The notes below the pieces were generated by a model, which saw only the letters and a program-made list of their open reading frames with translations, did no database searches and was not told where the DNA came from. This document shows positions 2,035-62,335 of a stretch of 64,000 nt of DNA, piece by piece. Source of the stretch: a virus (taxonomy: Duplodnaviria > Heunggongvirae > Uroviricota > Caudoviricetes); IMG/VR virus record IMGVR_UViG_3300021166_000052, positions 197,424-261,423 of that record; one strand, written 5' to 3'. The translations under genes were made by a program, and so were the position numbers. The number at the start of each line of letters is the position of its first letter. Positions within the stretch are counted from its first letter, which is position 1.

Positions 2035-2045
2035 AGGGAAAATAA

Positions 2046-4085: not shown

Positions 4086-4089
4086 ACTA

Positions 4090-4560
4090 ATGGCAGAATA
4101 GACCCCCGATTTTACACCGGAAACGTTTTTTAATCACAACTATGCCTATGAATATCCAATTATGTTGGGTACATAGGCAAGTTGCGAGTTTCAAAGACAA
4201 TTGAATTTTACTATTATGCGTTTTTTTATACAATCCCAGATTATATTTAAACAAGATGTGTATAAATATCCTAACGTGATTGGTATGTGGAACAATACAA
4301 AATTTATACCAACAAATGCTTATAAGTATCCAAATTTAAAAGGATTATATACAACGTTGATATTCAATGTAAATCGGTCATTTACATAGTTGAATATAAT
4401 TAAATATGGATTAGCTATAAATTCATATACGTAGGAAATAACTCCCCCAAATGATAATTATTCTAAATGTTTAGCAACCGACTAGAGAGTTTAGAAACAA
4501 ATGTCAACTACCAACCAAACACAAACGATAACAAAATCATCGAATCAATATTAGGCATAA
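4090..4560 (+). CDS. hypothetical small protein (TAG-recoded, 7 in-frame TAG)
   Basis: ATG 4090 lies just after the upstream TAA. A single frame runs to TAA 4558-4560 with 7 TAG. Contains ORF-track fragment 4201..4389. Confidence 0.4.
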
Positions 4561-4712: not shown

Positions 4713-5198
4713 ATGAAAACCGAAGATAAATTTTTATTACATTTACTTGAAACCGCTATACGCATTGCTGTAACTGCTCATGCTGGGGTAATGGATAAAG
4801 CGGGTGTACCGTATATATTACACCCTCTCCGTATCATGGGTGGAGCCAAGGCACTTAAAGAGAAAATAGTTGGTGTTCTTCATGATACCATCGAAGATAC
4901 TGATGAAAACAGTTTATTAAATGTAACATTTGAATATCTTAGGGAAGAAGGGTTTCCTGATGATATCATTGAGGCGCTTGATTCCGTTACCCATCGTAAA
5001 GGTGAACCTTATGCAGATTATATACAACGTGCAAAGAAAAATATAATCGGTAGAAAGGTGAAAATACTTGACTTACGTGATAATTCTGATATATTCAGAT
5101 TACATTCGGTTGAGGAAAAGCATCTTAAACAAATGAAACGATATCATGCCGCAATGCTTGAATTGCGAAAGGATGGTAAAGTTTACATAACGAGGTGA
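4713..5198 (+). CDS. small alarmone hydrolase, RelA/SpoT-type HD domain ((p)ppGpp hydrolase)
   Basis: HD-domain motifs H...HD (LHDTIEDT) typical of SpoT/Mesh1 hydrolases. 161 aa, so a single-domain protein. Confidence 0.6.
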   Translation: MKTEDKFLLHLLETAIRIAVTAHAGVMDKAGVPYILHPLRIMGGAKALKEKIVGVLHDTIEDTDENSLLNVTFEYLREEGFPDDIIEALDSVTHRKGEPYADYIQRAKKNIIGRKVKILDLRDNSDIFRLHSVEEKHLKQMKRYHAAMLELRKDGKVYITR

Positions 5199-5955: not shown

Positions 5956-6918
5956 GTGGATATTTTTTTATATAGAGGACAAACTATTATGAATAATAAA
6001 TATAATGTTATAATTAGGGATGTTGGTGTATGTGGAATGAGGATTCAGATCGATGATCTTCACGATGCTCATATTGAACTAATTAACATAATGTTGGAAA
6101 CTCATAAACGGCTTATTATTGTACTAGGGGTGCGGCCTATTATATTTACTGCAAAAAATGCATTAACATTTCAAATGAGAAAACAGGCATTTTTTGAAGT
6201 GTTTGGAAATTATAAACATCGTATTACTTTATTATATATAAACGATGTAAGAGATGATCACATATGGTCAAATAATTTTGATAATCTTATCAAAAACAAT
6301 ATTAAGGAAAACGAAACTGTTAGATGTTGCGGAGGGAGGGATTCATTTTTAAATTATTATCATAATAATATTTATGAAAAATGGGTCATTACTGATTTTA
6401 CTCAGTCAGAATTCATTTCTGCAACTGCTAAACGGAATGAGATTGCTAAAACTACAATATTTGATTCTTCATTTAGGCGGGGTGTTATTTATTCCGCATT
6501 AAATTTACCGGGACAATGTGTGCCTTCAATTGATGTAGCAATATATGATCATTATGGTAATATATTAATGGGGCAACGGGTCGATGAATTATCATATCGT
6601 TTTATTGGGGGATGGGTTCAACCGAGAGAAACGTTTGAAATGGCGTGTAATCGAATTGTAAAAACCAAATGTGGAATCGCTATTGATAATTTACAACCAA
6701 TACGTAGTTTTTGTAATTTTGATTGGAAATTTAAAGGTGAACGAGATGATTTGACAACCATGTTATATACTGCATATATAACAGAAGGTACACCTGAACC
6801 ACTGGGAAATCTTAAATATCTACGATGGGTTTCGATTGTTGATATACTGAATGTGGTCGATTCAGAACATTTGGAATTGGCAAAATCTATTTACGAGTTA
6901 CATAATGCATCAAACTAA
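5956..6918 (+). CDS. NMN adenylyltransferase-like / Nudix-fold bifunctional protein (NatV/NadM-like)
   Basis: N-terminal cytidylyltransferase-like segment (G.R.Q....HDAH). C-terminal Nudix-like box GGWVQPRETFEMACNRIV, which is degenerate. Size and architecture match phage NatV, and it sits adjacent to Nampt. Confidence 0.5.
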   Translation: MDIFLYRGQTIMNNKYNVIIRDVGVCGMRIQIDDLHDAHIELINIMLETHKRLIIVLGVRPIIFTAKNALTFQMRKQAFFEVFGNYKHRITLLYINDVRDDHIWSNNFDNLIKNNIKENETVRCCGGRDSFLNYYHNNIYEKWVITDFTQSEFISATAKRNEIAKTTIFDSSFRRGVIYSALNLPGQCVPSIDVAIYDHYGNILMGQRVDELSYRFIGGWVQPRETFEMACNRIVKTKCGIAIDNLQPIRSFCNFDWKFKGERDDLTTMLYTAYITEGTPEPLGNLKYLRWVSIVDILNVVDSEHLELAKSIYELHNASN

Positions 6919-7184: not shown

Positions 7185-8624
7185 GTGAATACAATGGAAC
7201 AAGATATGAGAAGTTTGGTAGAAGAATTTAATGTTATGACTGCAACCGATAGCTATAAACTCGGACGCGACCGCATGTTCTCTGAAGGGACCGAAAGTGT
7301 ATCCTCTTATTTTGAAGCTAGAGATGGTGCAAAATTTCAATATAATGTATTTTGTACACTCCAATATTTGTGTATGAAATATCTCTGTGGTAAGCAAGTC
7401 ACGAAAGCTAAAATCGATTGGGCTGAATATCTTTCTGAACTTCACCTCGGTCAGAAGGGCGCATTTGATCGATCCGGTTGGGATTACATCCTTCAAAAAT
7501 ACGATGGCCGGTTGCCTATTGAAATCTGTGCAGTTGCCGAAGGAACCCCTGTTCCAACTGGTAATGTTATGATGCAGATCAGAAATACCGATCCCAAAGT
7601 ACCAGTGTTATCAAATGCGATTGAGTCGATGATTACCCATGTTTGGGCAGGAACTACCGGAGCAAGTTTATCAAGGTATATCAAACAGATGCAAAAACGA
7701 TTTCTTGATATTTGTTGCGATACCCCCGATGAAGTTCTTCCTTTTATGCTGCATGATTTTGGTTATCGAGGGTCGTCAAGCCATGAATCTGCCAGACAAG
7801 TAGGCGCTGGTCACTTGCTCAATTTTTTAGGAACTGATACAGTACCAGCGATGGAATTGCTCATTCAATATTATGGAGCGTCTATTGATAGAGCGACTTT
7901 CAATGCAGGGTTTTCTATTTTTGCAACAGAACATCTTATCATGACTCAAAAAGGTGAAGCTGGTGAATTTGATGTAGTTGAAGAATTGTTGAATAAATAT
8001 CCCACTGGCAACCTTGCGATGGTAATTGATAGTTATAACTGGAAACGTTTTATTGAAACCATGGGAACACCTCGTTTCAAAGACCGTATATTGAACCGGG
8101 ATGGTAAGATTATTTTTCGGCCAGATTCAGGAAAGCCAGTTCCCACATCATTTGGTGTATGGAAAGGGCTTGCTAATATTTTTGGGTATGATACAAATAA
8201 TAAACGATATGATGTATTGAATCCAAAGGTTAGTACAATTTGGGGCGATGGTATTGATGAAGTCGAAGGTGAATCCATCTACCAAAACTTTATTGATAAT
8301 AAAATCTCGATTGAAAACTGTCCACTTGGTATGGGTGGCAATCTACATCAGAAAATCAATCGTGATACACAAAGGAACGCCTTTAAAGGTTCGTTTGTTC
8401 AACGTAATGGTGTTGGTTATGATATCTTTAAAGACCCCATTGATGGTAGTAAAAAATCTAAAAAGGGTAGGCTTGCTTTGATTAAAGATGCGGCGGGTAA
8501 TTTCCAAACCCTTCAGGGTGTGACCGGTCCAGTTGAGGGTGATCTTCTAATCCCAGTATTCCGTAATGGTGAGATGTTGAAAACATATACCCTTAATGAA
8601 ATGAGAGCAAACGCTGCATTATAA
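7185..8624 (+). CDS. nadV: nicotinamide phosphoribosyltransferase (Nampt / NadV)
   Basis: 479 aa. N-terminal TDSYK motif and overall Nampt-like length and composition. No in-frame TAG and six TGG Trp codons. Confidence 0.75.
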   Translation: MNTMEQDMRSLVEEFNVMTATDSYKLGRDRMFSEGTESVSSYFEARDGAKFQYNVFCTLQYLCMKYLCGKQVTKAKIDWAEYLSELHLGQKGAFDRSGWDYILQKYDGRLPIEICAVAEGTPVPTGNVMMQIRNTDPKVPVLSNAIESMITHVWAGTTGASLSRYIKQMQKRFLDICCDTPDEVLPFMLHDFGYRGSSSHESARQVGAGHLLNFLGTDTVPAMELLIQYYGASIDRATFNAGFSIFATEHLIMTQKGEAGEFDVVEELLNKYPTGNLAMVIDSYNWKRFIETMGTPRFKDRILNRDGKIIFRPDSGKPVPTSFGVWKGLANIFGYDTNNKRYDVLNPKVSTIWGDGIDEVEGESIYQNFIDNKISIENCPLGMGGNLHQKINRDTQRNAFKGSFVQRNGVGYDIFKDPIDGSKKSKKGRLALIKDAAGNFQTLQGVTGPVEGDLLIPVFRNGEMLKTYTLNEMRANAAL

Positions 8625-9092: not shown

Positions 9093-9614
9093 ATGATTAC
9101 ATTAGCAACAACATGTGGTATCTTTATTATAAATAAATTCAAACAAATACTTACATGTCATCCAACGGGTCATCATCCATTGCAATTGGATATACCAAAA
9201 GGATGTTTAGATCGAGGAGAAACTGTGTCTCAATGTGTTGTTAGAGAACTGTTAGAAGAAACTGGGATTGATTATTATACATTACAGCGGCCATTAATAG
9301 ATATTAGTGCGATACATGGGACATTTATATATAAGCATAAGAAAAAACAATTATATACATTTATGTTACAACTAAATGACACAATAGATGTAACTACCTT
9401 GAAATGTACAAGTATGGTTACGAGTGTACCCATTCCATTTCCAGAAGTAGATTCTTTTGCATGGATAGAATATAACGAAAGAGAGTTGCTACATGAATCT
9501 CAGCAACGTGCCATAGAAGTAATTAATGATCAATATAATATATTTGATTTACATTCATCCAAAGATGAAAATACTCAATATATAACAATTTCTAAAAGTA
9601 ATAATTATGGTTAA
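9093..9614 (+). CDS. Nudix hydrolase
   Basis: Canonical Nudix box GCLDRGETVSQCVVRELLEETGI (G-x5-E-x7-REUxEExGU). Confidence 0.7.
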   Translation: MITLATTCGIFIINKFKQILTCHPTGHHPLQLDIPKGCLDRGETVSQCVVRELLEETGIDYYTLQRPLIDISAIHGTFIYKHKKKQLYTFMLQLNDTIDVTTLKCTSMVTSVPIPFPEVDSFAWIEYNERELLHESQQRAIEVINDQYNIFDLHSSKDENTQYITISKSNNYG

Positions 9615-9714: not shown

Positions 9715-11343
9715 ATGTTAAGATATCAGCCTAAATATAATGTTAATGTAGATTCAACTGGATCTGGGGATTCTACAACAATAAATTTAATAAACGCGGG
9801 TAATGTTTAGGTAACAAATATTACATCTGGGGGTATTGTTTCTTCTAAAACATATATTCCCAATACTGTCCCTGCTAATTATATTTTAACTGCTGCTACA
9901 ACAGATCATCAAACTGTAACAATATTTTTTATTGCAGAACCTACAACATTATAGTCTCCAACTATTACAGTAGATGGAATAACGTGTACTAATTTAACAC
10001 AATATGCAGATGATAGACGATTATTTTCAGGGTCTGTTACAATAACAGTCGCATCATCAAAAACGGTTACACTAACTTCGAATACAGGGAAAAGTACAAC
10101 TGTTCAAGTCAATCGAGCCGCAATGGCCCCAACTATAACCGATATCAGATTTATTAATGGATATCCGGGTACTCAAACCGAAGTTAAACAAAATGATACA
10201 TTGACAGTTCGTGTAACATTTGATCCAGCAGGAACTGCCCCCACCCAAATAGATGTTATGGATTATGGTATATCACAATCTAAGACAGTTTTAACATCTT
10301 CAACTGAATTATCATAGGGAACAGTTCACACCGCCACATTTACAATATCCACAAAATATGTAGGCAACACTGCCCAATTATTACCTATACAATTACGAGC
10401 AAGAAATTTATTTGGTACTGCTAGTAATTATATAATTTCCAATGTATATGGTACTACGGAAACTATACAGGTAATGAAAGGATGTGATTTAGTTCCTACT
10501 ATTACTGTTAATGCCACTACATACCCATCGGGGCAGGGAGCTTTTAAAAATACAGAATCTGGTAACATAAATGTTACTATTTCTAATTATACAGGTGTTA
10601 CATATTCTTCTCCAAATGGAAATTTTACAATTACATCTCCAACTATATATGCTGCGTCAAAAACTATAACTTGTACTCATCCCGGAACATATAATGATTC
10701 TGTAAATAATATTAGAGTTGTAGCTACTCGTTCTGCAAATGCAACTTCTACAACAGCAAATTTCATAGTAGAAGTTGCAGATATTGCGCCTACTGTGAAT
10801 GTATATCATTCTGAATCATATTTAAGATCTACTGAAGCCGGTTACACTTATACTATATATGCTACTAGTAATCAAAATCTATTATCAGCCCCATCTTTTA
10901 ATATACCAGTTTCTGGTATATAGGTTGCTGGTGCATTTACTGGTTCTAATAAAAATTAGCAGCGAACAATATCTATTAGGGATAGTGATATAAAAGGAAC
11001 GGCTCCATAGAGTGCTACTATATTACCAACTAATAAAGCTAAAATTGATGCAATAATTACTGGAAACCAAATTGTTAGGGGATTTAGATCGAGAATTTTA
11101 CCATTACCTGCTTTTGGAACCAGTTGTACGTTAGGGACCGCTGTAACAAGTATTGCAAATTTAGTATTTTCATAGAGTTTTAAAACAGCTATGGCATATT
11201 CCCCAATTGGATCAGTTGCACCAATTGTAGGTGGATAGACTATTAGTGCATTAAATAATAATCCAACAACTATTTATATTTTAGATTCTCAGGCGGCGGC
11301 TGCTTCATCAGCGGCCAGCACAATAACTATAGAGGAAACATGA
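9715..11343 (+). CDS. virion/tail structural protein (TAG-recoded, ~9 in-frame TAG)
   Basis: Single frame from ATG 9715 to TGA 11341-11343. ORF-track pieces 10123..10317 and 10474..10923 are in the same frame. Thr/Ser/Asn-rich. No TGG seen in the long fragments. Confidence 0.55.
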
Positions 11344-11400
11344 TTAATATAAATAGTAAATATAATTAATTTAATAATATATTTAATGGGTTTGTAATAA

Positions 11401-12021
11401 ATGCCAACTACCGCCGAATTAGCATTCGAACTAGAACGCCGGATCATTGTTTTCCATAACGCAACATCTTTACCAGATGATACTCAATTAGGTTATATAG
11501 GTGATCCTAATAATGTTGTTAATGGTGCAACTGCTGGTCAAACTTTATTATATAATTGTCCATCTGGAACATTTTTTTTAGATAAATCACAAAATCCACA
11601 TGATATTTATCAAAAAGTACAAGATGGAGCCGGTGGATTATAGATTAAACATAATAGTTCAACTACTACAACCGGGACAATTGAATTTACTGATACAACA
11701 GTATTAGCATCTACTGATATCGGAGGAGGTAGAGTTGTAATAGTTTTTAATAATAGTGCAACATATGCGGATAACACAACTAATTATTTTGGCCAAATGG
11801 GAATTACATTAAATGCAGCATCAATTGGTGCAAGTTTAAAAGTTAGATTAGCTGGTATTATTGATGATGTAAGTTTTAATTTTATAAATGGTCCGTTATA
11901 TTTAAGTAATAATGGATTAATTACACAAGTAGAACCGATAACCAATGCTAGTGTAGTATTAGGTTATCCAAAAGATAACAAATCATTTTTATTTGATCCT
12001 CAGACAATTATAGAAAGGTAA
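11401..12021 (+). CDS. structural protein (1 in-frame TAG at 11641)
   Basis: Fragments 11401..11643 and 11797..12021 share a frame and are joined by one TAG. Ends in TAA. Confidence 0.5.
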
Positions 12022-12026
12022 ATTAT

Positions 12027-12533
12027 ATGGCTGATAAATATTTAAAGAACAATGGCGCTTCTTATAAAGAAGTAGGATTTTTAGTAACAAGTACTGGTGC
12101 AAGTGATGCTGGTAAAGGTGTTGGGTTGAATGCACAGGGCCGTCTGGACGAATCTTTGATGCCCGTGGGTCTTGGTGCGGATACTAAACAAATCGTGGCT
12201 GGCGAGGCTCTGGGTGCTGGTAATTACGTTAATGTTTATAGTGACTCAACAGTTTTTAAAGTCCGTAAAGCGGATGGAACTATTGAAGGAAAATTTGTCG
12301 ATGGCTTTGTATTGGCAGCATTTGCAGCCGATGATTTAGCAACTGTATACTTTGAAGGAACTAATAATCAATTAACCGGACAAGTTGCAGGGGATGTATT
12401 TTTAGCAACAACCGCAGGTGCTGGTACATCTACACCACCTAGCGCATCTGGAAATGTTGTTCAGCGAGTAGGTGTTGCAATTAGTCCAACTGAAGTTAAT
12501 TTTGAACGCGGAATGCCTACTGTATTAGCATAA
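12027..12533 (+). CDS. structural protein, Gly/Ala-rich
   Basis: Complete 168-aa ORF. No TAG and no TGG. Confidence 0.5.
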   Translation: MADKYLKNNGASYKEVGFLVTSTGASDAGKGVGLNAQGRLDESLMPVGLGADTKQIVAGEALGAGNYVNVYSDSTVFKVRKADGTIEGKFVDGFVLAAFAADDLATVYFEGTNNQLTGQVAGDVFLATTAGAGTSTPPSASGNVVQRVGVAISPTEVNFERGMPTVLA

Positions 12534-12559
12534 TCTTTGTTTTTTTGGTTTAAAAAATA

Positions 12560-13285
12560 ATGGCACGTAAACGACCACTAGCAATATACAATGGTATACT
12601 TAGAGAAATTAACAAAGGAGATACACTACCGCCTGATGTTTTAACGGATACTATCTCTTTTGGTAATGGGGTTGAAATAGTACTATCACAACACGGTGAT
12701 AGTACTTCAACCACCTTCACTCTATCTCGTCCTGTTGAGAAAGTATTAGTTGCTGTTAATGGTTTATTACAAACAAATTATATTCAACCAAATGGAACAG
12801 ATCAATTAGTATTAGGATTTACACCTGCATCCGATGATTTAATTATTGCATATTGTTTTGGCGAAACTACCACAACAGGAATAGCAACACTTAATCGCGT
12901 TTTGGATACAACTACTGATGGAACTACTAGTAATTATACATTAGATACCACTGCATATAATGTGATGGTTTTTTTAGATGGTATATTACAATATGATTTT
13001 GTTCATGGAAACGATTCTGATTATTTATATTTAGGATTTGTGCCAATAGCTGATAAAAAATTACAAGTATATTCTGTAGTTGGTGGTATAAAAGGACCAA
13101 AGGGTGATAAAGGTGAACCCGGTGAAGCGGCGGATCACGGCTTATTAACAGGACTTGGTGATGATGATCATCCCCAATATTTAAATGAAAGCCGTGCTGA
13201 TGAAATTTATATCAGATTAGATAATACTGATATTGGAGTAGACACTAGTTATCATCATATTCAATCAATATCATTGGATACGTAG
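12560..13285 (+). CDS. tail fibre protein with short collagen-like Gly-X-Y segment
   Basis: GPKGDKGEPGE triplet repeat. An upstream domain repeated in gene 14985..15926. Ends at TAG 13283-13285. Reading through would run about 150 nt further to TGA, so the end is uncertain. Confidence 0.5.
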   Translation: MARKRPLAIYNGILREINKGDTLPPDVLTDTISFGNGVEIVLSQHGDSTSTTFTLSRPVEKVLVAVNGLLQTNYIQPNGTDQLVLGFTPASDDLIIAYCFGETTTTGIATLNRVLDTTTDGTTSNYTLDTTAYNVMVFLDGILQYDFVHGNDSDYLYLGFVPIADKKLQVYSVVGGIKGPKGDKGEPGEAADHGLLTGLGDDDHPQYLNESRADEIYIRLDNTDIGVDTSYHHIQSISLDT

Positions 13286-13437
13286 TATATTGAACATAAT
13301 TTAAATAAATATCCTTCCGTAGTTATAATTGATTCATCTATGGATAAGGAAGAAGTATATGGAACAATAAAACATATAGACTTAAATAGACTTAATGTCT
13401 ATTTCTCATCAAACTTTACTGGAGAGGCATACTTATC

Positions 13438-14967
13438 ATGAAATTTTTAAATAATATTAATCTAACATTAAATGAAATCCAAAATGTAAAATTACATAAT
13501 CTAGGATCGGCACCTACTGGTTATGAAGGTTTAATTTACTACGATACCGCATTAAAACGTACCGGCGTTTATATGAATAGCACCTAGAAGTATTTTGTAA
13601 CATATGATTTACTAGGTGCTGCTTCTGGTGTTGCAACCCTGAATGCAAGTTCATTAGTGGTTCAAAATCCAGCAAGTGCTGCTTCTACATCAGGCGGAGC
13701 CGCTGGAGTTATCCCAATTACCCCCGCTGGTGGTAGATTAGACGGTTCATTTATTCCGCTATTAAATAATATACCAGCACCAACTGGGGCGGTATCGTTA
13801 AATTCACAAGCTATTACTAATTTAGCTAATCCTACCAATCCTCAAGACGCTGCTACTAAAAATTATGTAGATTCTGCTGTACAGGGACTTGATACTAAAG
13901 CATCTGTTCGTGTTGCAACTACGGGTGCTATTACTTTAACAAATACTCAAACAGTTGATGGTGTTTCATTAATTGTAGGTGATAGAGTATTAGTAAAAGA
14001 TCAAGGAACAGCTTCTGCTAATGGTATTTATATAGTATCTGCTACAGCATAGACAAGAGCTACTGATGCTGATTCGTGGAATGAATTAGTTGCAGCATAT
14101 GTGTTTATTGAAGAAGGTACAACTTATGCAGACACTGGTTAGGTTTGTACCGTTGATGCTGGTGGTACACTTGGAACAACTGATGTAACATTTGCTCAGT
14201 TTTCTGCCGCCGGTACTGTAACTGCTGCCAATGTAGGGGCAGGAACTGGTACTATCTTTAGAGATAAAACAGGAAATGTAATCAATTTAAAATCTATTGC
14301 CGCTGGTTCTACTAAATTAAGTATTACTAATAATGCAGATAATATTACATTGGATGTTAATGAAGCAAACTTAGTATTTGCTAATATGACATCTTCTGGA
14401 ACATTAGCTGTTGCAAAAGGTGGTACTGGAACTACTACTTCAACTGGTACTGGTTCTGTTGTATTATCAAATTCACCTGCATTAGTTACGCCAACTTTAG
14501 GAGTAGCAACTGCTACATCTATAAATAAGGTAACTATTACTGCTCCAACATCAGGAGCTACATTAACTATTGCAGACGGTGCAACATTATCTACTGCTGG
14601 ATCATATACTTTAATGTTAACTGCTACTGGAGCAACAAATGTAACTTTTCCGACATCTGGTACATTGTTAAGCACAGCAGCAGCAGTAACAGTTGCACAG
14701 GGTGGTACAGGTTCAACTACAGCGGCTGGAGCTAAAACTAATTTAGGTTTTATGACTCGTTATTCTGCTGACATTGGTAATGGTTCATTGACTACTATTC
14801 CAGTTGTACATGGTTTGAGTACATTAGATGTTCAAATTACGGTATATGAAAAAGCTGGAAATTCTGTAGTGTATCCTGATATTATGTTAACTGATGCTAA
14901 TACTGCTTCAATTGTATTCTCAGTAGCTCCAACTGTAAATCAATATAGAGTAGTTGTAATAGGATAA
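13438..14967 (+). CDS. tail fibre protein (conserved phage tail-fibre N-terminal domain; 3 in-frame TAG)
   Basis: The segment VRVATTGAITLTNTQTVDGVSLIVGDRVLVKDQGTASANGIYIVSATA(TAG)TRATDADSW...ADTG(TAG)VCTVDAGGTLGTT..FAQFS matches a widespread phage tail-fibre domain. An AKGGTG...TNLG motif lies downstream. Frame is continuous through fragments 13657..14052 and 14350..14967. Confidence 0.65.
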
Positions 14968-14984
14968 TTAAAGGAGATTGACTA

Positions 14985-15926
14985 ATGCCTAAAATATTGG
15001 GACAGACGGAAGTAGTTGGTAGTTTAACGGCTACTTCCGTCAATGGTATTACTGGTTTAAATTCCAACGATGGTACAATTCAACCAAATGGTAGTGTAGC
15101 AGACGCTGGTATATCTAATTATGCAGCAAGGGCAGATCATGTTCATGTTGGTGGTATCGGTGGCGGTGCGTCTTATTTAAATGATTTACTTGATGTCAAC
15201 ATTAGTTCTGTTGCAGATGGAAATGTATTATTATATGATTCAGATACTACCAATTAGGTTAATGTGGTATCAAATATAGAAAGTATCGAAACTGTTTTAG
15301 ATACTACAGGAAATGGAACTACTACATTTACTTTATCTAAAGCGGTTGGTAAAGTATTAACTACAATAGATGGTATAGTTCAAAGAGATTTTACACAACC
15401 AAATGGTACAAATCAGTTAGTTTTTGGTTTTATACCAGATACAACAGAAAATGTTACAGCATATAGTTTTAATAATATATCAGTAGGCGGTGGTGGAGGA
15501 GCTAGTACATTAGATGAACTAACTAATGTTAATGCTCCATCTCCAACTGAAGACCAAATATTATCATAGGATTCTACGAGCGGCCAGTAGATTGCAAAAA
15601 CATTAGTTATTGGTGATGACACATCTGGTATAGTTTTATCAGAAATTGGAACTGCTACTATAAATTTCGGTGATTAGCCCGGTCAAAATGAAGCCACAAT
15701 TATATTAGATACATTAACTAATATAACATCTACTGCTAAAATTACAGCATAGATAACCGCTGATTCTACATCGGAAGATCATTCAGAGAGTGACCACCGA
15801 TATTTAGCATTATTTACAAAATTAGTTTGTACATCTCCGATTGCTGGTGTTGGATTTACTATATATTGTATATCAGAACATAAATTAGAAGGACATTTTA
15901 CTATCAATTAGGCATAGACTGATTAA
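14985..15926 (+). CDS. tail-fibre-like protein (7 in-frame TAG)
   Basis: Frame 0 is continuous from ATG 14985 through TAG 15255, 15567, 15588, 15675, 15750, 15909 and 15915 to TAA 15924-15926. Shares a domain with 12560..13285. Confidence 0.5.
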
Positions 15927-15939
15927 GAGGAGATGAAAC

Positions 15940-16707
15940 TTGCCACCATATAAAACATATATTAGAGAGTAGGATTGTAAGCCACCATCACATATACCAA
16001 TTAGAACAGATAATCATTAGTCTACACAAGGATTAGTTTATTGTAATATGTTTAATGAATCGTTAATGGAAAGTATTTCTGGGGTTGTTGGTGATCCAAC
16101 TGGTAATATAATAACACCAGATGGTGTAAGATTTACTGAAGATACTGATAGATTGGTATATCCACCACATATAAAACCTATGCAACTAAATCAAACTAGC
16201 ACTGTTATTGTAACTACTAAATTTGATGTTAAAAAATAGACACCAAATATGAAGTTATTAGCTGTTGATGGTAATGACATTACATTTTATAATTTAGGAA
16301 AATATATTTATTTGGATTTTTATTATGCTGGCAACGCTTCTGTTATTGCTTATAATGATAGTTATAATAAGTAGACGCAATGGATTTCTATACGGGCCGC
16401 TACTTATAAAAGTATATATATAAATTGTGAAATGGCAACGCAAGTAATGGATATGAATGGTGGGTATATTAATTCAACATCTAGTATGACATTTGGTAAT
16501 AGTGTTATAGATGATAGTAATCCATTTAAAGGTACTATTGGATATATGTTAGTTTATAATAGAACTCTTACTGAAAGAGAAATGACACTATTATAGCAAA
16601 ATCCATATCAAATGTACGAACCCGAAGTATTGTATATTGACCAAGAAAGACCATATAATTATCAAATCACTAAAACAAACCGAAGTAAAATATTTAATTT
16701 AAGTTAA
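15940..16707 (+). CDS. LamG/concanavalin-like jelly-roll protein (paralog 1; TTG start; 5 in-frame TAG)
   Basis: AAGAGGAG RBS 7 nt upstream of TTG 15940. C-terminal FKGTIGYMLVYNRTLTEREMTLL resembles the LamG fold. N-terminus parallels gene 17114 (YKxYIxE(TAG)DxKPP...H(TAG)S). Confidence 0.4.
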
Positions 16708-16718
16708 AGGGAATAAAA

Positions 16719-17114
16719 ATGGCATAGTCTAATAAAACGACCCTCACTGGAGTTGGGGCCGAATTAAGTGAGATCACAAATATTGATGCTAATTATGTAG
16801 ATGTTAATCATTATACTGAGTGGGTAACATTAAACCCCGGTGAAATTGCAGATTTAGAAATTAATGTGGTTTTTGGTGCAGGTGGAACCGATGTTTGGTA
16901 CAGAGTTGTGAAAACATTAGATGAAACTTCTGAAGCTCCACAAAATATACCATATATAGCAGGAGTATTTGCATATTCATCTAGTGGCAATTATAAAAAA
17001 TCAGTAGTAATATCTAATTGTTATAAATTTAGAATCGAATTTAGAAAAGGTGGAACCACTGCTGGTACATATACACCTTATGTATATATGAGAAAGAATG
17101 GTGTGTCTGTGTAA
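16719..17114 (+). CDS. small structural protein (1 in-frame TAG)
   Basis: ATG 16719. Fragment 16866..17114 is in the same frame. Stop TAA overlaps the next ATG (gtgTAATGg). Confidence 0.4.
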
Positions 17115-17914
17115 TGGCGGCATATAAACAATATATTAAAGAATAGGATACTAAACCTCCATCTGGTACAAAATTAAGAACCGATGGCCATTAGTCTGTT
17201 AAAAATCTAGTATATTGTAATACATTTAATGATTCATTTACAGAAAGTGTCAACGGAATAATTGGTACACCTTATGGTAATATATTAACACCAGATGGTG
17301 TTTGTTTTACAAATGATACTGATAAATTAGTATATCCAGCTAATACATTTAAAATGTTAGGTTCACTAATTGGCCCCTATACAATTTTATTTTCGTTTAG
17401 ACCACCAGATATATATCAAACAGAAGCAAATTCATATATTATTGGCAACGGATCACAAGAAATAGCTTTATTTTAGGTAGGCCCATCTACATTTAATATG
17501 GATTTTACAATGGGACTATCATCATTAAATCAATTAAATACGGCTCTACATTACGACCAATAGCAACACTGGCAATTAATACGTACATTACAGGGAACAA
17601 TATCATTTTTAAATGGTGTTATGATAGAAGCATCAGACGAACCGGAGTATGGTGATATAATAACTACAAATCCATAGATTTTTGGTAATAATAGCACAGA
17701 TACAGGGGTATTTAAAGGAACAATCGGGTATTTTTATATTTATAACACTGATTTTGTTAATTATCATACCCCGACATAGGAACTAGATTCTTTATAGAAA
17801 AATCCATACCAGATGTTTGAATCAGAAGTATTATATATTGATCAAGAAAAACCAAAAATGTATAATATAACTGAAACTAATAGATCACAAAATTCGATGT
17901 TAATTGGTTAGTAA
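17114..17914 (+). CDS. LamG/concanavalin-like jelly-roll protein (paralog 2; ~8 in-frame TAG)
   Basis: Read by eye in frame 2 from ATG 17114 to TAG-TAA at 17909-17914. N-terminal 60 aa are about 60% identical to gene 15940. C-terminal FKGTIGYFYIYN motif. Confidence 0.4.
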
Positions 17915-17957
17915 TGTTAATAAAATAAATTAATTATTAAATATAAGGTTTTGAAAA

Positions 17958-18275
17958 ATGATTCCAAAAATAGAAGATAGAGATTATAAATATCAAGGTA
18001 ACAATATTTGTAGTATTTTTGCTACTTTAAATATATATGCTGATGACAACACAACTATCGTAGATAGTGTAAAGTTACAAGCAAATTTTGATATATCTGA
18101 TGTAGATAATGTTGTTGCGTTTGCAACCGAACAATTATCATCACAAGTAATGGATTATATGTCAAAATTAGTTTATATTGATAATTTAAGAAAACAGATA
18201 TTTCCAACGTCAATAGACTTTAAAGACGCAATTAATTCTATATTAGATCCAATTCAAGCATCACTTGTTGGATAA
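17958..18275 (+). CDS. hypothetical protein
   Basis: Complete 105-aa ORF. Confidence 0.45.
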   Translation: MIPKIEDRDYKYQGNNICSIFATLNIYADDNTTIVDSVKLQANFDISDVDNVVAFATEQLSSQVMDYMSKLVYIDNLRKQIFPTSIDFKDAINSILDPIQASLVG

Positions 18276-18309
18276 TATAATAAAATAAGAAATAAATAGG
18301 AGATCAAAC

Positions 18310-19776
18310 ATGTCATTAGATACAACAATTAAAGGATCGACAACTGGAAATGGTGCAGAAGTTGATTCTGTTCATAGATTAAAAGTAAACTTAGCAACCG
18401 GTGATGTACCAGCGGAAGTGGGCGGGGTACGCAATTTTTCCGAAGTAGATCCCGGTACACGAACAGGCTCTCCTTTATTACGATCAAATGAAGTTAGTAT
18501 GGATTATCGAGCTAGAGTTGGAACTGATACTGTTCTATTTAGTGATATCTTTAATGCTGGTGCCCAAAATATTAGTTTATATAAATGTGCATTCACCACA
18601 ATGACATTAACTCAATCTGCTGGATTTTTGAATATAAATGCAGCGGGAACATCTACAGTATCTGGTAACTATGCACAATTACAAACATAGAGATATTTTC
18701 CTTTGATTGGAACATCGCCACTCGCTGTAGAATTTGTAATAATGGTTGATAGATATCCAGTTGCAAATGAAACATTTTTATGTGGTTTGGGCGTAGCGAA
18801 TGCTGCAAATGAACCAATTGATGGTGTGTAGTTTGAATATACTGATGCTGGATTGAAGGGTTGTCAAAAATATAATAGTGGCGTTACTGATAAAGTACTA
18901 TTAATGAATGCTAATGAATTAACTTTTAATACTACTAAAAAATTTGTATTAGTTGTTAGTTATGATAAAATAGAATTTTAGATCAATGATATTTTATATG
19001 GTACATTAAATAGAGATGCTGCAACTGGTATACCGTTTATTACTGGGGCATTACCATGGTTTTGTACTAAATATAATAATGCTGTAATTGGAACATCTCC
19101 AAATATGAAAGTAATGATTGCTAATGTAAATATTACTTTAATGGATATTTCCTCTAATATGACATAGAGTGGCCAGATGGCCAGTGCTGGTCTTGTTATG
19201 CAGCAGATGAATGGTGGTACTGCTGGTTCCCCACAAGTCCAATGGGCTAATACTGCATTACCTACAGCAGCAGCAGCAACAAATACTACAGCGGCATTGG
19301 GGGCATTTTTAGGAGGTATTTTCCAAATGAACGCTCCTGCAACATCCGCAACTGATATTATTATAGCTAGTTATTTAAATCCAGTCGGTGGCGTTGCACA
19401 GACTCCACGAACAATTAAATTAAGAGGAATTAAAGTAGATTGTGTTAATGCAGTTGTTGCTGTTGCCACAACAGCTACTACATTTGCAGTAGCTGTAGCA
19501 TAGGGTGGAACAACTTTAACATTAGCAGCCACTGAATCTGCAAGTTTCGCAACTGCAACTGTCAAAGCTCGTAGAATACAACCAATTGGTGTAATAACAT
19601 TCCCGATTGCATCACCGGTAGGATATGCAGCATCGCCAATTCAGTTCGATTTTGAAGCACCACTTCTTATAAGTCCGGGTGAGTATGTTCAAATAATAGC
19701 AAAACCACTAATTGGAACAGCGACATCAACTGAAGTATTTCAATGGATTATATCACCAAATTTGTATTGTGAATAA
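18310..19776 (+). CDS. large structural protein (5 in-frame TAG)
   Basis: Fragments 18310..18690 and 19177..19503 are in the same frame. Continuous to TAA 19774-19776. Ala/Thr-rich. Confidence 0.5.
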
Positions 19777-19795
19777 TATTGTGGTATATTGATAT

Positions 19796-20278
19796 ATGAA
19801 ACAAAAAATAAGTAAATCTATAATTAGAGACTTATCTGAAGCAGCATCGGTTGTACTTATAAATGATAGTACAACCGATGCTGCTTGGTATCCTATAGTA
19901 GCATCAATATCATCTGGTACTGTATCTAATATATATACAAGTTCTACTAAATTAACATTTAATCCCGCAACTGGAAATTTTAGTGCAACTCAATTTACGT
20001 CATTATCAGATAAAAAATTAAAAGAAAATATACAACCAATAGAAGATGCGCTTTATATAATAAATCAGTTAGAAGGTGTAGAATTTGATTGGAAAGATTC
20101 TAAAAATCATAGTTCTGGTTTAATAGCACAGGATGTAGAAAATATACTACCATTTTTAGTTGTTGAAACAGAAAATAAATCTATAAATTATAATGGTATT
20201 ATAGGATATTTAGTAAATGCTATCAATGAGTTACATCAAGAAGTTAATATATTAAAACAAAAACTAGAAGATAAATAA
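19796..20278 (+). CDS. short tail fibre/spike with C-terminal intramolecular chaperone autoprotease (peptidase S74) domain
   Basis: LSDKKLKENIQPIEDAL...LEGVEFDWKD...GLIAQDVENILPFLV is the classic S74 / endosialidase-chaperone signature. Confidence 0.7.
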   Translation: MKQKISKSIIRDLSEAASVVLINDSTTDAAWYPIVASISSGTVSNIYTSSTKLTFNPATGNFSATQFTSLSDKKLKENIQPIEDALYIINQLEGVEFDWKDSKNHSSGLIAQDVENILPFLVVETENKSINYNGIIGYLVNAINELHQEVNILKQKLEDK

Positions 20279-20280
20279 AG

Positions 20281-20844
20281 ATGGAAAATAGTAATTTTAT
20301 TGGTTACAATAATACTTATTATTGTAACTCTGACTTAGATTCAATTTATGTAACTGAACAATATATCATTGATAGATTTGGTGGTTTTAATTTGATGAGT
20401 TAGGGATGGAACAACGGTGGCCAACTAGGCTCAGAAAATATAGTAAATCGGTCTTCCCCAGTACAAGTGGGTAGTTTAACTAATTGGAAGTTGGTTTCAT
20501 GCGGAAGCTATTCAACATTTACATTAGCAATTAAAAATGATGGTACTTTATAGTCTTAGGGAAATAATAATGAAGGTCAATTGGGATTAAATGATACTAC
20601 CCCTTATTCTTCACCTGTACAAGTTGGAAGTTTAACTGATTGGAAGTTGGTTTCATGTGGATTATATCATACCATGGCAATTAAAACCAACGGAACGCTG
20701 TAGGCGTTTGGTTATCATGGTAATGGTGAATTAGGATTAAATGATATAATAAGTCGCTCTTCACCTACTCAAGTTGGTAGTTTAACAACTTAGAAAGATG
20801 TCTCCGCTGATTGGGGACAGACTGTGTTATTATTAAATGATTAA
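20281..20844 (+). CDS. RCC1-repeat protein (5 in-frame TAG, each at a conserved Trp position)
   Basis: Codon-checked single frame. Repeats of GTL(TAG)S(TAG)GNNNEGQLGLND..SSPVQVGSLTDWKLVSCG match the RCC1 consensus GTLWAWGxNxxGQLG. The third repeat has SLTT(TAG)KDVSA where the other repeats have SLTNWK / SLTDWK with TGG. Confidence 0.7.
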
Positions 20845-20896
20845 ATATATTTCTTGATATATATAGTTTTTATACTATACCATATGGAGATAATTA

Positions 20897-21448
20897 ATGA
20901 ACATAAACATCGGATCTGGTTATAAAAAATATAAAGATTACATAAACTTAGATGCTGATTTCAATTGTAATCCTGATATTTTATTTGATTTAGAAAATGA
21001 CATCTTCCCATTTGAAGACAGTTCTATTGATAAAGTAATAGCACATCATATTTTAGAACATATTGGAGATGGATATTTTCATGTTTTAAAAGAATTGTAT
21101 AGAATATGTAAACATGGAGCAATTATCGATATCCGCGCCCCACATCATAATCATGAAGTATTCCATAATGATCCAACCCATAAAAGACCCATCACAGTTG
21201 AAGGTATGCGTCTTTTTTCAAAAAAATATAATAAATATGAAATTGATAGAGGGGGATCTTCTTCTACACTCGGTATTATTTATAATATAGATTTTGAAAT
21301 TGTTGCATTTGATTATGTATATGATTCGTTTTATAATGAAATATTTAAAACAAACACCCAAACTCAAAATATTAGGTTATGTAGAGAGTTTATAAACACT
21401 ACATTAGAAACCCATATTATTATTACACCAATTAAGGACGTTATATAA
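20897..21448 (+). CDS. class I SAM-dependent methyltransferase
   Basis: N-terminal IGSG..Y.....N.D motif and overall Methyltransf_11-like pattern. No TAG. Confidence 0.55.
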   Translation: MNINIGSGYKKYKDYINLDADFNCNPDILFDLENDIFPFEDSSIDKVIAHHILEHIGDGYFHVLKELYRICKHGAIIDIRAPHHNHEVFHNDPTHKRPITVEGMRLFSKKYNKYEIDRGGSSSTLGIIYNIDFEIVAFDYVYDSFYNEIFKTNTQTQNIRLCREFINTTLETHIIITPIKDVI

Positions 21449-22788
21449 TGCATTTACAAACTATTATAGATTTTTTAAGTAAGGTCGATGAATTAGAAAC
21501 TGCTAAAATAATATTAACAACATTTTCTAAATATGCAAAAAATTTACAACAGTATGATGAGTTGGGTATGTTATTTGAAAAGATTAAAGACTATAATGAT
21601 TCAATAGCTATGCTAGAAAACTGTTTAAATATAGCAACATCAACAGAACAGTTATATTCAATTCGTGCAAATTTAGCAAAAGTGTATAATCATCTCAACG
21701 AACCTTATAAATCATTATTCTATTCTAACTTAAATTATGAATTAGTAAAGACGGATTATGATACTCAAATGGAACAGAGTTTTTCATACTATTTAATAGG
21801 TGATTTTAATAAATCATATCAAATACAATTAGACCTTTTGAATATTAATAATATATCAGATGAAATTCATAAAAAAATCCGTTTTAACATGGGAACATTT
21901 GAAATTGCAAATGGTGATTTTAAAAGTGGGATGAGGAATATTGTAGTCGGTGGTAAAGATATAGGAATTTGGAAATCTATAAATAGATTTTATGATAAAT
22001 GGGATGGAGGTGTAACCGATAAAACATTGTTAATATTTGCAGAAGGTGGAATCGGTGATGAAATTATTAATGTTAGATTTATGAGTGTTTTAAAAAATAA
22101 AGGTATAGATGCCATTTGGATTGGTCATAATATTGAATTGATTAATTTATTTCAAAGAAATGGATTTAATGCATGTTTAGAATCTAATATTGATCCACTA
22201 CAAGATTATGTATATTGTGAATCAATGATGTTATCAGTGTTATTAAATATAGAAGAATTTGAATTATATAACGGGTCATATTTTAAACCATCTCAACAAT
22301 ATATTGATAAGTGGAAGTTACTATTACCTGATAAATTTATTACTATTAAATGGTCAGGCAATCCATTTTATGATCATGATTTACATAGGACCGTCCCAAT
22401 TGATAGATTAATAAATACAATTAGAGAAAAAACTGATATACCCATTATTTCATTACAACTAGATGATACCGCTGGTATTCATAATGATTATATATTATAT
22501 GATATACAATCATGGGAAGATACATTAGCTATTCAATCATTAGCTAAATTAAATATTACATCTTGTACAAGTACCGCTCATACAGCATCTGCAATGGGAG
22601 TTGATTGTGTAGTTATTCCACCAATATGTACATACTTTCCATGGTTAAATTTAAATGAAAATCATACTAGTAAATGGTATGGAAAAACCACAAGAATATA
22701 TCCACAAACCAAATGGAAAGATTGGTCAGATCCACTTGAATATATTGCACAAGAATTATTATTATTAAATAAAACGGAGATTATATAA
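21448..22788 (+). CDS. putative glycosyltransferase (GT9/heptosyltransferase-like core with N-terminal helical extension)
   Basis: TLLIFAEGGIGDEIINVRF resembles the GT9 ILIIRxxxIGDVI motif. Weak. Confidence 0.35.
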   Translation: MHLQTIIDFLSKVDELETAKIILTTFSKYAKNLQQYDELGMLFEKIKDYNDSIAMLENCLNIATSTEQLYSIRANLAKVYNHLNEPYKSLFYSNLNYELVKTDYDTQMEQSFSYYLIGDFNKSYQIQLDLLNINNISDEIHKKIRFNMGTFEIANGDFKSGMRNIVVGGKDIGIWKSINRFYDKWDGGVTDKTLLIFAEGGIGDEIINVRFMSVLKNKGIDAIWIGHNIELINLFQRNGFNACLESNIDPLQDYVYCESMMLSVLLNIEEFELYNGSYFKPSQQYIDKWKLLLPDKFITIKWSGNPFYDHDLHRTVPIDRLINTIREKTDIPIISLQLDDTAGIHNDYILYDIQSWEDTLAIQSLAKLNITSCTSTAHTASAMGVDCVVIPPICTYFPWLNLNENHTSKWYGKTTRIYPQTKWKDWSDPLEYIAQELLLLNKTEII

Positions 22789-23574
22789 ATGAAAACTTTT
22801 TATTTTTTAGCGGGGTTGCCTCGATCTGGGTCAACTGTATTGGCCTCAATTTTAAATCAAAATCCGGGTATATATGTGACACCCACAAGCCCAATGTTAG
22901 ATTTATTGATAGCTAATCAAAATGCTTGGTATGATGCCCCATCGGTAAAAGCAAATCCTTTTCCAGAACAATTGACAAATATTACAAGGGCAATGATTGC
23001 TGCATCATGGCAACACCGACCCGAAAATATTATAATTGATAAAAATAGAGGATGGATGAAAAATATTGAAGCGTCTGAAATATTATTTAATAAAAAAGTT
23101 AAGATGGTTGTCACTACCAGAGATTTACCTAGTATAATGGCATCGTGGTTACGATTGATAAAAGATAACACTGACTGTTATTTTATAAGAATGCTAAAAG
23201 GTAAACATCTTAAAATTACAGATGATAGTATATTATCAGAAATGTGGTTTAATATGGTAAAAGATTGTATGGAAGGTTTAAAAAATGTTAAATTAATTGC
23301 ATCTGATAGGATACTCTTAATTGATTATGATAATTTTGTAAATAATCCATATGATATATTAAATAATATAACTACATTTTTAGAATTACCTATTTATAAT
23401 TATGACATTAATAATATTATAAATGATACTCATGATGATGATCTTACTGCGTGGGGTTTAGATGGTATGCACACAATACGGCCAATTTTACAAAAACAAT
23501 CAAATGATCCACGAATGTTATTAGGTGATCATTTATATAATAGATTTATTCATATAGAAAAACAATACAATTAA
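22789..23574 (+). CDS. sulfotransferase-family protein
   Basis: N-terminal GLPRSGSTVL matches the PAPS 5'-phosphosulfate-binding loop (PKSGTT-like) of sulfotransferases. Confidence 0.5.
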   Translation: MKTFYFLAGLPRSGSTVLASILNQNPGIYVTPTSPMLDLLIANQNAWYDAPSVKANPFPEQLTNITRAMIAASWQHRPENIIIDKNRGWMKNIEASEILFNKKVKMVVTTRDLPSIMASWLRLIKDNTDCYFIRMLKGKHLKITDDSILSEMWFNMVKDCMEGLKNVKLIASDRILLIDYDNFVNNPYDILNNITTFLELPIYNYDINNIINDTHDDDLTAWGLDGMHTIRPILQKQSNDPRMLLGDHLYNRFIHIEKQYN

Positions 23575-23603
23575 TTATATATAATTTTAATTAGGATGGT
23601 AGT

Positions 23604-24131
23604 ATGGCTGAACAACAAATTGATAAAAATGTACTTAAAAACTTACCCGATATATTACTTGATAATTTAATTGATGTGGATTCAAGTGGTGTATTAAGTG
23701 GCCAAATTTTAATTTATGATTCAACTTCAAACACTTAGAAAGCAGGAGAAAATTTAATTGATATATCATTTGAAGATATATCAAATATTGACCTAAGTGT
23801 ACCGCCCATAGATGGCCAAACGTTAATTTATGATGCTACTAGTGATAGTTAGAAACCCGGTGAAAATACATTTATATTATCATTAGATGATATTTCTGAC
23901 ATTGATTTAAGTGTCCCGCCAACTGAAGGTCAAATATTAAAATTTGATTCAACAAGTGATAATTAGAAAGCTGCTGATAATATAATTGAAATTGAATTAG
24001 ATGATATTTTAAATGTTGATTTAAGCGTTGCTCCGACAGATGGACAAATATTGATGTATGATTCAACATCAAACACATAGAAAGCCGGTGATGGTGGAGG
24101 CACTGGTATTTTAGATGGAGGTACATTTTAA
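23604..24131 (+). CDS. tail-fibre repeat protein (4 tandem ~40-aa repeats, each with one TAG)
   Basis: Four copies of DLSVPPxDGQxLxYDSTSxx(TAG)KAGE. Same repeat family as 943..2034. TAA overlaps the next ATG. Confidence 0.5.
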
Positions 24132-24343
24132 TGATTATAATTACAAAACATACACCAACCCCCGGAAAAGTTCCAACAAGTACAGATTTAGTTGTTGGTG
24201 AATTGGCAGTAAATACGAACGATAAAAAATTATTCACTAAACATACTGATAATAATATTATAGAGATTGGAGGTGGTTCCGGTGGAACTTCTGGTACATT
24301 TCCAGAAGTAGATTTATTACGAATGGCACTAGGAATAATTTAA
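24131..24343 (+). CDS. hypothetical small structural protein
   Basis: 70-aa ORF in an overlapping TAATG junction. Confidence 0.4.
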   Translation: MIIITKHTPTPGKVPTSTDLVVGELAVNTNDKKLFTKHTDNNIIEIGGGSGGTSGTFPEVDLLRMALGII

Positions 24344-24355
24344 TAGGTTAATTAA

Positions 24356-24733
24356 ATGGCAAGCAGTCCACAATATACAGCGATTCCTAAAGTAGGAATA
24401 GGAAAAATTTCAGTAGCAAATACTAGTTTAACTGGTACAGGAACACTTGTTAATGTTGTTAGTGCTGGTACAAATGGGTCAAGAGTTGATAGTGTAACAG
24501 TTAAGGCAACTACAACTACCACAAATGATATAGTACGATTATTTTTATATGATGGATCTATATATTCACTATTAACAGAAATATTAGTGTCGGCAATAAC
24601 AATAAGTTCAACTATAAAATCATTTGAAACTACCATTACATTGGGTATTGTTATTCCATCTGGTTATAGTTTATATGCATCAACTCATGTTGGACAGAGT
24701 TATAATATTCTTTCATTTGGCGGTGATTTTTAA
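24356..24733 (+). CDS. hypothetical structural protein
   Basis: 125-aa ORF. TAA overlaps the next ATG. Confidence 0.4.
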   Translation: MASSPQYTAIPKVGIGKISVANTSLTGTGTLVNVVSAGTNGSRVDSVTVKATTTTTNDIVRLFLYDGSIYSLLTEILVSAITISSTIKSFETTITLGIVIPSGYSLYASTHVGQSYNILSFGGDF

Positions 24734-27968: not shown

Positions 27969-27971
27969 AAT

Positions 27972-28000
27972 AAATGGGGGCCAATTGGCCCCCCATTTTT
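27972..28000. terminator. bidirectional intrinsic terminator (aaatgggggcc aatt ggcccccattt)
   Basis: Perfect GC-rich palindrome flanked by A-run and T-run, between convergent genes. Confidence 0.65.
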
Positions 28001-28524: not shown

Positions 28525-28853
28525 ACTCCTTATAATTGTTAGTTTATATAATTAATTCATTTTAAATAAATAATTATTAATTATTTATAAAACTAATTTT
28601 GGGGATTTTTTATGTCATATATGAAAAAGTTTGCTCGATAGAATTCCACAAGTTTTCAAGTTCAAATATATCCTTACTCAACAACCAAAGAAGAACTTGG
28701 TAAAATTGTCTTTTCTGATACTTATAATTATGATTGGTATGTTAATCCATGTGTCACATGTCCCGAAGAATAGGACGTACCAACAACCATTTAGGGCACC
28801 GAAGATACGTTCAGAAAAGCTAAGTCAAAGATCGAAAGTTTCATTAAAAAAAG

Positions 28854-28882: not shown

Positions 28883-28912
28883 GTTTATATAACTTCAACT
28901 GGAGAATAAACG

Positions 28913-62324: not shown

Positions 62325-62335
62325 CGATTTTAATA

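Follow-up and report, generated by a model that had tools for sequence, protein, structure and literature searches.

In-frame TAG codons at conserved tryptophan positions of virion genes suggest a TAG-to-Trp code in a jumbo phage lineage

Results

A stretch of 64,000 nucleotides (nt) from a tailed virus (Caudoviricetes; positions 197,424 to 261,423 of IMG/VR record IMGVR_UViG_3300021166_000052), referred to throughout as the window, was analysed for the meaning of the TAG codons found in frame within its genes. The window appears to derive from a jumbo myovirus whose genome, of ~276 kb, uses TAG for tryptophan (Trp, W) in most virion genes and in a few other genes of late type, a reading that is based on sequence comparison and to which we give a probability of about 0.8. 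That this lineage evolved the TAG-to-Trp code independently, as a dialect of its virion and late genes, is judged to be nearly as probable. The initial annotation had pointed to one gene with TAG codons at positions that it assigned to Trp; the phenomenon is wider than that gene, as 89 in-frame TAG codons are present, mostly in the virion genes of the window. TAG and TGG behave as evolutionary synonyms in one class of genes, and from the other class TAG is excluded. Coordinates are those of the window, and features lie on the plus strand unless indicated otherwise.

The protein encoded at 62399–63448 is 100% identical to a database protein (P0391) located on a single 276,095-bp contig of the Joint Genome Institute, and the window thus represents under a quarter of a jumbo phage genome. 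The genes of the window correspond to those of a large tailed phage, with a tail sheath, a fibre protein, LamG-like proteins and an endosialidase-chaperone domain.

TAG codons in the fibre-module gene

The open reading frame (ORF) at 13438–14967 (frame 1, 509 codons), encoding a virion fibre or decoration-like protein, runs from ATG to TAA, and its start overlaps the stop codon of the upstream gene (ATGA). It contains exactly three internal stops, TAG each time, and under the standard code it is split into fragments of 49, 131 and 205 amino acids (aa). Homologues of the product were collected (4487 matches among 5.8 billion proteins) and the columns aligned with the TAG codons were read in the best 120. 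The two peptide strings quoted in the initial annotation are present as written. The first of these TAGs, in SATA(TAG)TRATD (aa 205, 14050–14052), had been assigned to the Trp of GAWTRATD-type sequences, and it does fall on a GAW(T/S)RA(T/L)D-type column with W in 103 of 119 homologues. The second, in ADTG(TAG)VCT (aa 235, 14140–14142), had been assigned to a Trp of TGW/SGW type; here the column is W in 78, Y in 22 and F in 6 of 120. A third TAG, which the annotation left unmentioned (aa 50, 13585–13587), likewise occupies a Trp column (W in 68 of 110). Since the background of Trp in alignments of this kind is ~1%, the dominance of W at the three columns is far above chance. The solved homologue PDB 9nx3, a capsid decoration protein, has W at the aa 205 and aa 235 columns. 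The same was seen in DNA: among 79 module-bearing loci of IMG/VR, TGG occupies aa 205 in 67 and aa 235 in 48, the remainder being TTY or TAY.

Glutamine (Gln, Q), the residue that the annotation had named as incompatible with its assignment, occurs at these columns only in the three closest relatives, P0001–P0003 (70–77% identity). The DNA encoding P0001 was inspected in two contigs from separate sequencing runs (L001, 1457–2986; L002, 1278–2807), a check that covers P0001 alone, and the "Q" at aa 50 and aa 205 proved to be TAG translated with code 15 (TAG read as Gln). The database records of P0001–P0003 therefore carry Gln because the gene caller applied code 15, as verified in the DNA for P0001, and the three sequences are probably wrong at these conserved Trp columns. 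At aa 235 the window has TAG and the 77%-identical L001 and L002 have TGG, a direct exchange of the two codons. Relatives from other samples thus share the recoding and interchange TAG with TGG. The contig of a further relative, P0005, follows the standard code.

The annotation had also described the module as a common N-terminal domain of tail fibres. A widespread virion-fibre module it is: more than 599 IMG/VR stretches match, and the core VDGV...GDRVLVK...NGIY...W.RA.D is present in the window protein. Tail fibre is, however, just one of two virion roles possible for the product from its matches, the other being capsid decoration. The ORF matched PHROG 2647 (head decoration, E 2.6e-51) and PHROG 11518 (tail fibre, E 3e-28), the module also matched PHROG 27782, and the annotations of these families include tail fibre, head decoration and virion structural protein. 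Its PDB matches were the capsid decoration protein 9nx3 and tail fiber gp9. In the Pfam scan no family covered the module.

TAG codons at conserved Trp columns of other genes

The ORF at 9715–11343 encodes a tail-sheath-like protein with 8 TAG and no TGG codons. It matched PHROG 15433 (tail sheath, E 2.7e-70) in a single continuous alignment running through all the TAGs, and its homologues in the phages PhiPA3, Noxifer and PaBG are annotated as tail sheath. When the TAG columns were read in 150 cluster representatives (28–45% identity), five of the eight were dominated by W, two by F or Y, and one was variable. Conversely, every W-dominated column of the family, five in all, corresponds to TAG in the window protein.

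A conserved 488-aa protein is encoded at 18310–19776 with 5 TAG and 3 TGG codons. The five TAG columns are W in 109, 118, 120, 120 and 120 of 120 homologues (60–67% identity) and never Q, and the conserved Gln columns of this protein are spelled CAA or CAG in the window. In 16 relatives from IMG/VR (L003–L018; 29–68% G+C, mostly of standard code), TGG was found at all five sites in every one (16/16; 80/80 codons). The RCC1-repeat protein at 20281–20844 (5 TAG; Pfam RCC1, E 1.5e-34) has TAG at the Trp positions of the S-W-G motifs when aligned to UVR8, and its internal repeats read SLTNWK, SLTDWK and SLTT(TAG)K. The papain-like cysteine protease at 51015–51752 carries 4 TAG codons inside an otherwise TAG-free region; compared to PDB 3ois (E 1.2e-49), TAG corresponds to W in EWPY, NSWG and DFWVI and to Y at one site. 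Log-odds computed in the manner of Codetta over 16 TAG columns were +80.6 bits for W, −9.7 for F, −18.9 for Y and −53.5 for Q.

Further TAG-bearing genes of the virion blocks are the ORFs at 943–2034 (5 TAG; weak PHROG match to a tail protein), 2046–4085 (9 TAG) and 4090–4560 (7 TAG), with one TGG each, and those at 14985–15926 (7 TAG, of which codons 256, 309 and 311 are W in relatives), 15940–16707 (LamG-like, 5 TAG), 16719–17114 (1 TAG), 17114–17914 (LamG-like, 8 TAG, the final codon being TAG followed by TAA), 23604–24131 (four YDSTSxx(TAG)K repeats) and 24733–26121 (5 TAG).

Distribution of TAG codons in the window

Among 96 non-overlapping ORFs, the 89 in-frame TAG codons reside in 22 (two of them apparently spurious) and 74 have none. 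In-frame TAA or TGA does not occur; every one of the 89 in-frame stops is TAG. The ORFs end in TAA (73) or TGA (23) and never in TAG, and termination in the window needs only codons readable by release factor 2 (RF2). Taking TAG as a sense codon joins fragments into long ORFs at 943–4560, at 9715–26121 and in a few genes elsewhere, and read-through restores full-length matches to the tail sheath, RCC1, papain-like protease and fibre families. Thus a single type of stop lies inside conserved genes whose homology becomes full-length on read-through, and it accumulates in genes for structure and lysis, with other genes avoiding it, as is the case in recoded phages.

The virion blocks contain 74 TAG and 35 TGG codons, compared to 15 TAG and 148 TGG elsewhere (Fisher p = 1e-24). 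About 80% of the Trp positions in TAG-bearing genes are spelled TAG. Within the TAG-rich virion block, the ORFs at 20897–23574 (methyltransferase-like, a 446-aa unannotated protein, sulfotransferase) have no TAG and 16 TGG. These enzyme-like ORFs indicate that recoding proceeds gene by gene and not by region. From 26237 to 64000 the window is mostly TAG-free; this region encodes metabolic and nucleic-acid enzymes with TGG for Trp and TAA or TGA as stops.

TAG adjoins a terminator only twice, as TAG-TAA at the end of 17114–17914 (TAG at 17912–17914) and as TAG-TGA at the end of 44172–44447 (TAG at 44445–44447). Both look like former TAG terminators backed by a second stop, and if TAG is Trp the two ORFs gain one residue each.

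Alternative explanations for the TAG codons

The host itself could read TAG as Trp, or possess a natural amber suppressor that inserts Trp, with the phage simply following. No suppressor is encoded in the window, under a quarter of the genome, and some recoded phages have no suppressor genes, which speaks for this reading. A host-wide code, however, does not account for the sharp split of the genes: those with TAG hold 82 TAG and 21 TGG codons, while the 74 ORFs free of TAG hold 153 TGG and 0 TAG (Fisher p = 1e-47). Moreover, literature searches gave no bacterium in which TAG is Trp. We consider this explanation unlikely, if the best placed of the alternatives.

Only marginally less plausible is editing of the mRNA from UAG to UGG (A to I or A to G) before translation, the code itself being unchanged. 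Stop-codon-correcting mRNA editing occurs in some fungi. Such editing would give Trp exactly at the TAG sites and would need no suppressor tRNA, none being found in the window, which also encodes many enzymes that act on RNA (three RNA ligases and radical-SAM proteins resembling RlmN and MiaB). Against it, no sequence or structural context is common to the 89 sites; the comparison of their flanks with those of 183 TGG sites gave no signal, and this lack of context fits global decoding by a tRNA. Near-complete conversion would be needed at up to nine sites per gene, and no window protein scanned has a deaminase domain. To our knowledge, no such editing system exists in phages or bacteria beyond sites of the TadA type, with their UACG context.

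That TAG means Gln (code 15), the reading known from crAss-like, Lak and further recoded phages and presumed by gene callers, is very improbable here. It is the only TAG reassignment reported for phages, the database proteins P0001–P0003 are written with Q at the TAG sites, and phage genes for tRNAs with the anticodon CUA (tRNA(CUA)) are common, the TAGs of those phages aligning with Q. Yet at none of the 16 tested columns does a standard-code homologue carry Q, which is found solely in the mistranslated relatives; the log-odds for Q are strongly negative, and the Q residues of P0001 are TAG codons in the DNA. Under code 15 the five near-invariant or invariant Trp residues of the 488-aa protein would all become Gln. 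What is seen instead corresponds to NCBI code 32: TAG aligns with conserved Trp, TGG stays Trp and stands at other conserved Trp columns, and TAA and TGA are kept as terminators. Codon usage points in the same direction. Genes with at least two TAGs use TGG at 0.42%, TAG at 1.66% and the Gln codons CAR at 2.79%, whereas TAG-free genes use TGG at 1.14%, TAG at 0 and CAR at 3.19%; with TGG reduced and the Gln codons level, TAG stands in for TGG and not for CAA or CAG.

As a control, IMG/VR was scanned for tRNAs combining a tRNA-Trp-like anticodon arm with CUA, using the pattern GGTCTCTAAAACC modelled on tRNA-Trp of Escherichia coli and Bacillus subtilis. At least 120 contigs (L019–L138; up to ~500 kb) with 129 tRNA(CUA) genes were obtained. 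The same column method applied to the ORF TAGs at these loci gave Q for 86, K for 40 and W for 8. The control returned the ordinary code-15 picture, and hence the Trp result in the window is not an artefact of the method. The first tRNA(CUA) inspected in the control set has a U1-U72 mismatch and G73.

Sequencing or assembly errors or decaying pseudogenes, which would also leave ORFs fragmented under the standard code, can be dismissed, as all 89 in-frame stops are TAG, the TAGs fall on Trp columns, identical TAGs are present in contigs of two other runs, and read-through restores the family matches in full length.

Search for the decoding machinery

The window was searched for tRNAs by ARAGORN at default and relaxed thresholds, with introns and with mitochondrial models, by Rfam at E values up to 1, and by scanning intergenic peaks of G+C, and only three tRNAs or tRNA-like elements were retained. 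The tRNA-Leu at 781–866 has the anticodon UAG and reads CUN; it is no suppressor. A tRNA-Ser(GCU) is located at 62155–62242. Next to it, at 62256–62325, lies a weak tRNA-Arg(ACG)-like element (70 nt, 57% G+C) called by ARAGORN at relaxed thresholds only; its D stem is of 3 bp and its T stem of 4 bp, and it is missed by the Rfam tRNA model. At the equivalent place the relative L140 has a proper tRNA-Arg(ACG) (3075–3146). The tRNA(CUA) calls made at relaxed thresholds in the window were rejected, being inside coding regions and with poor stems. Decoding of TAG as pyrrolysine was also rejected: the scan of window proteins gave no genes of the pylT/pylS-BCD type and no methylamine methyltransferase genes with UAG, the tRNA(CUA) calls are poor, and it is Trp that the TAG columns hold.

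Discussion

Proposed mechanism and points that weigh against it

The TAG-to-Trp code could operate as follows. During infection a UAG-reading tRNA with the anticodon CUA, charged with Trp, would become available; its gene would most likely lie in the three quarters of the genome beyond the window, a host origin being less likely. Release factor 1 (RF1) might be weakened by an accompanying factor. The virion genes would be translatable only after this switch, which would act as a lock on late genes of the kind proposed for phages with TAG-to-Gln and TGA-to-Trp codes. In a genome of 31% G+C, mutation pressure would favour the change from TGG to TAG once the two codons are synonymous.

Several observations speak against the Trp code or its proposed decoding. 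No tRNA(CUA) was detected in the 64-kb window, under a quarter of the ~276-kb genome, nor was a release factor, tryptophanyl-tRNA synthetase (TrpRS) or deaminase found among the window proteins scanned. In the relatives L140 and L141, the tRNA islands that adjoin the MiaB-like gene have neither tRNA(CUA) nor tRNA-Trp. A few TAG columns (in the sheath, the protease and others) are dominated by F or Y or are variable. The term "late" for the TAG-bearing genes rests on their functions, and the T4-type late promoter TATAAATA is not enriched upstream of them (16 occurrences on the plus strand and 20 on the minus strand). Finally, the tRNA-Trp of E. coli with the anticodon CUA (the su7-type amber suppressor) is reportedly charged largely with Gln. 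If such a tRNA is glutaminylated in E. coli, charging with Trp would need a suitable host or a dedicated enzyme.

Comparison with known recodings

The phage recodings described in the literature searched are TAG-to-Gln, TGA-to-Trp and TGA-to-Gly, and a major survey found only the first two in phages that differ in code from their host. UAG-to-Trp has been called exceptionally rare and is known solely from the plastids of Balanophora (Balanophoraceae; NCBI table 32), where UAG became Trp via a tRNA-Trp(CUA) after the loss of RF1. The present phage resembles these plastids in that TAG is Trp, TAA and TGA are stops, TGG is still Trp and the genome is AT-rich; in both, AT-richness favours changes from TGG to TAG. 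The mechanism proposed for the plastids, tRNA-Trp(CUA) with loss of RF1, is also the one that we infer for the phage. The plastid genome, however, is tiny and recoded throughout, and its tRNA is nuclear-encoded and imported, whereas in the phage TAG is confined to part of the genes, and a switch during infection is thereby implied. The two are certainly of independent origin.

Like the TAG-to-Gln phages (crAss-like, Lak, Garnet, Topaz, phAss-1), the present phage has TAG in structural and lysis genes, avoids it elsewhere and retains the stops read by RF2. Recoding in those phages has been proposed to act as a translational lock on late genes, and many recoded phages are without a suppressor gene. 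It differs from them in the amino acid, Trp, and in having no suppressor tRNA or RF2 gene within the 64 kb. With the Jade and Agate phages (TGA-to-Trp, code 4) it shares the reassignment of a stop codon to Trp in late genes, but TGA is a normal stop here, ending 23 ORFs. Genes for TrpRS and a release factor are present in some phages of the Jade/Agate type. With tRNA-Trp(CCA), UGA is near-cognate, the mismatch being at the wobble position, while that of UAG is at the middle position, so that a changed anticodon is needed.

The closest indication of such a code in phages comes from a study of suppressor tRNAs adjacent to theta ribozymes, in which 19.4% of 180 were predicted to be of Trp isotype ("rarely reported code 32"); its authors concluded code 15 and presented no evidence at the protein level. 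The control loci, in which a Trp-like anticodon arm accompanies TAG read as Gln, may explain these published predictions.

The su7-type suppressor has the body of tRNA-Trp with a CUA anticodon and is thus the kind of molecule inferred for the phage. It is said to be charged mainly with Gln, which would account for the phage tRNA(CUA) genes that have a Trp-like arm and accompany TAG as Gln. Unlike su7, the present phage would need a combination of tRNA, synthetase or host that keeps the Trp identity.

The closest cultured relatives of the sheath are in phiKZ-like and PaBG-like jumbo phages (PhiPA3, Noxifer, PaBG, NCTB), at ~33% identity. Their genomes of 258–309 kb are comparable to the ~276 kb here. 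The relationship is a distant one, and the 488-aa protein is unmatched in GenBank phages.

No protein-level report of a phage with TAG-to-Trp was found in the literature outside subscription-only papers. If the Trp code is true, it would be a third pairing of a stop codon with an amino acid in phages, beside TAG-to-Gln and TGA-to-Trp/Gly, and the first TAG-to-Trp code outside a plant plastid. It would imply a tRNA(CUA), borne by phage or host, that keeps its Trp identity and escapes glutaminylation. How a tRNA with a CUA anticodon does so in a bacterial cell is a biochemical question, and the answer could yield a natural amber-suppressor pair specific for Trp, for use in genetic code expansion. 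TAG-recoded phages would not be uniformly of code 15, and some published code-15 annotations and proteomes would hold systematic Trp-to-Gln errors. Gene callers that offer code 15 alone put Gln at the conserved Trp positions of this lineage, as in P0001, to the detriment of homology search, structure prediction and metaproteomics. The amino acid of a recoded codon should be inferred from alignments for each lineage rather than assumed.

Other features of the window

The 488-aa protein matched no PHROG or Pfam family. A structure model was built on a homologue and not on the window sequence; it consists of two concanavalin-like beta-sandwich domains (mean predicted local distance difference test score 66.6, moderate) and resembles, among others, a phage receptor-binding domain. 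On this model the protein is probably a receptor-binding virion protein. Major capsid protein was considered as an identity and rejected, given the tandem concanavalin-like beta-sandwich fold and the missing PHROG and Pfam matches. Its conservation (60–67% identity in contigs of 29–68% G+C) is unusually strong for an unannotated virion protein.

In the otherwise TAG-free region, the ORF at 38561–39250 (229 aa, 3 TAG) combines a lipobox-like N-terminus (LLGLC) with a transmembrane helix at the C-terminus, and judged by eye it is possibly a unimolecular-spanin-like lysis protein. The product of the ORF at 44172–44447 is rich in Ser and Cys at its C-terminus, and a radical-SAM gene (44642–45532) follows closely downstream; from these features it could be the precursor of a modified peptide. 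A 74-codon ORF with 4 TAG that overlaps this ORF (region 44172–44632) is apparently spurious.

The enzymes of the window include three RNA ligases, RNase H, an RNase T-like exonuclease, an SLT lysozyme and several radical-SAM proteins; macro, HD and SpoT-like HD domains are also present. Two distant homologues of RlmN/Cfr-like radical-SAM RNA methyltransferases are encoded at 41951–42907 and 43142–43966 (~70 bits against a cut-off of 290), and the gene at 62399–63448, adjoining the tRNA genes, encodes a distant member of the MiaB/RimO methylthiotransferase family, far below the family cut-off. These proteins are distant homologues of enzymes that modify rRNA or position 37 of tRNA; a role for them in UAG decoding is speculation. 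Together, the RNA ligases (26237, 48250, 59295), an HDIG protein (60070) and the radical-SAM and MiaB-like genes make up an unusually large set for RNA repair and modification. A further set relates to the metabolism of nicotinamide adenine dinucleotide and nucleotides (7185–8624, 5956–6918, 9093–9614, 51833–52918 and 4713–5198), comprising NAMPT, two NUDIX proteins, a fusion of dephospho-CoA kinase (CoaE) with a cytidylyltransferase, and a small SpoT-like HD protein.

The region 27969–28630 is the sole long stretch without a plus-strand ORF. On the minus strand it contains an ORF of 173 codons (27999–28520) whose codon 16 is TAG, and the stretch coincides with a region (28001–30000) where the positive GC skew is locally lost.

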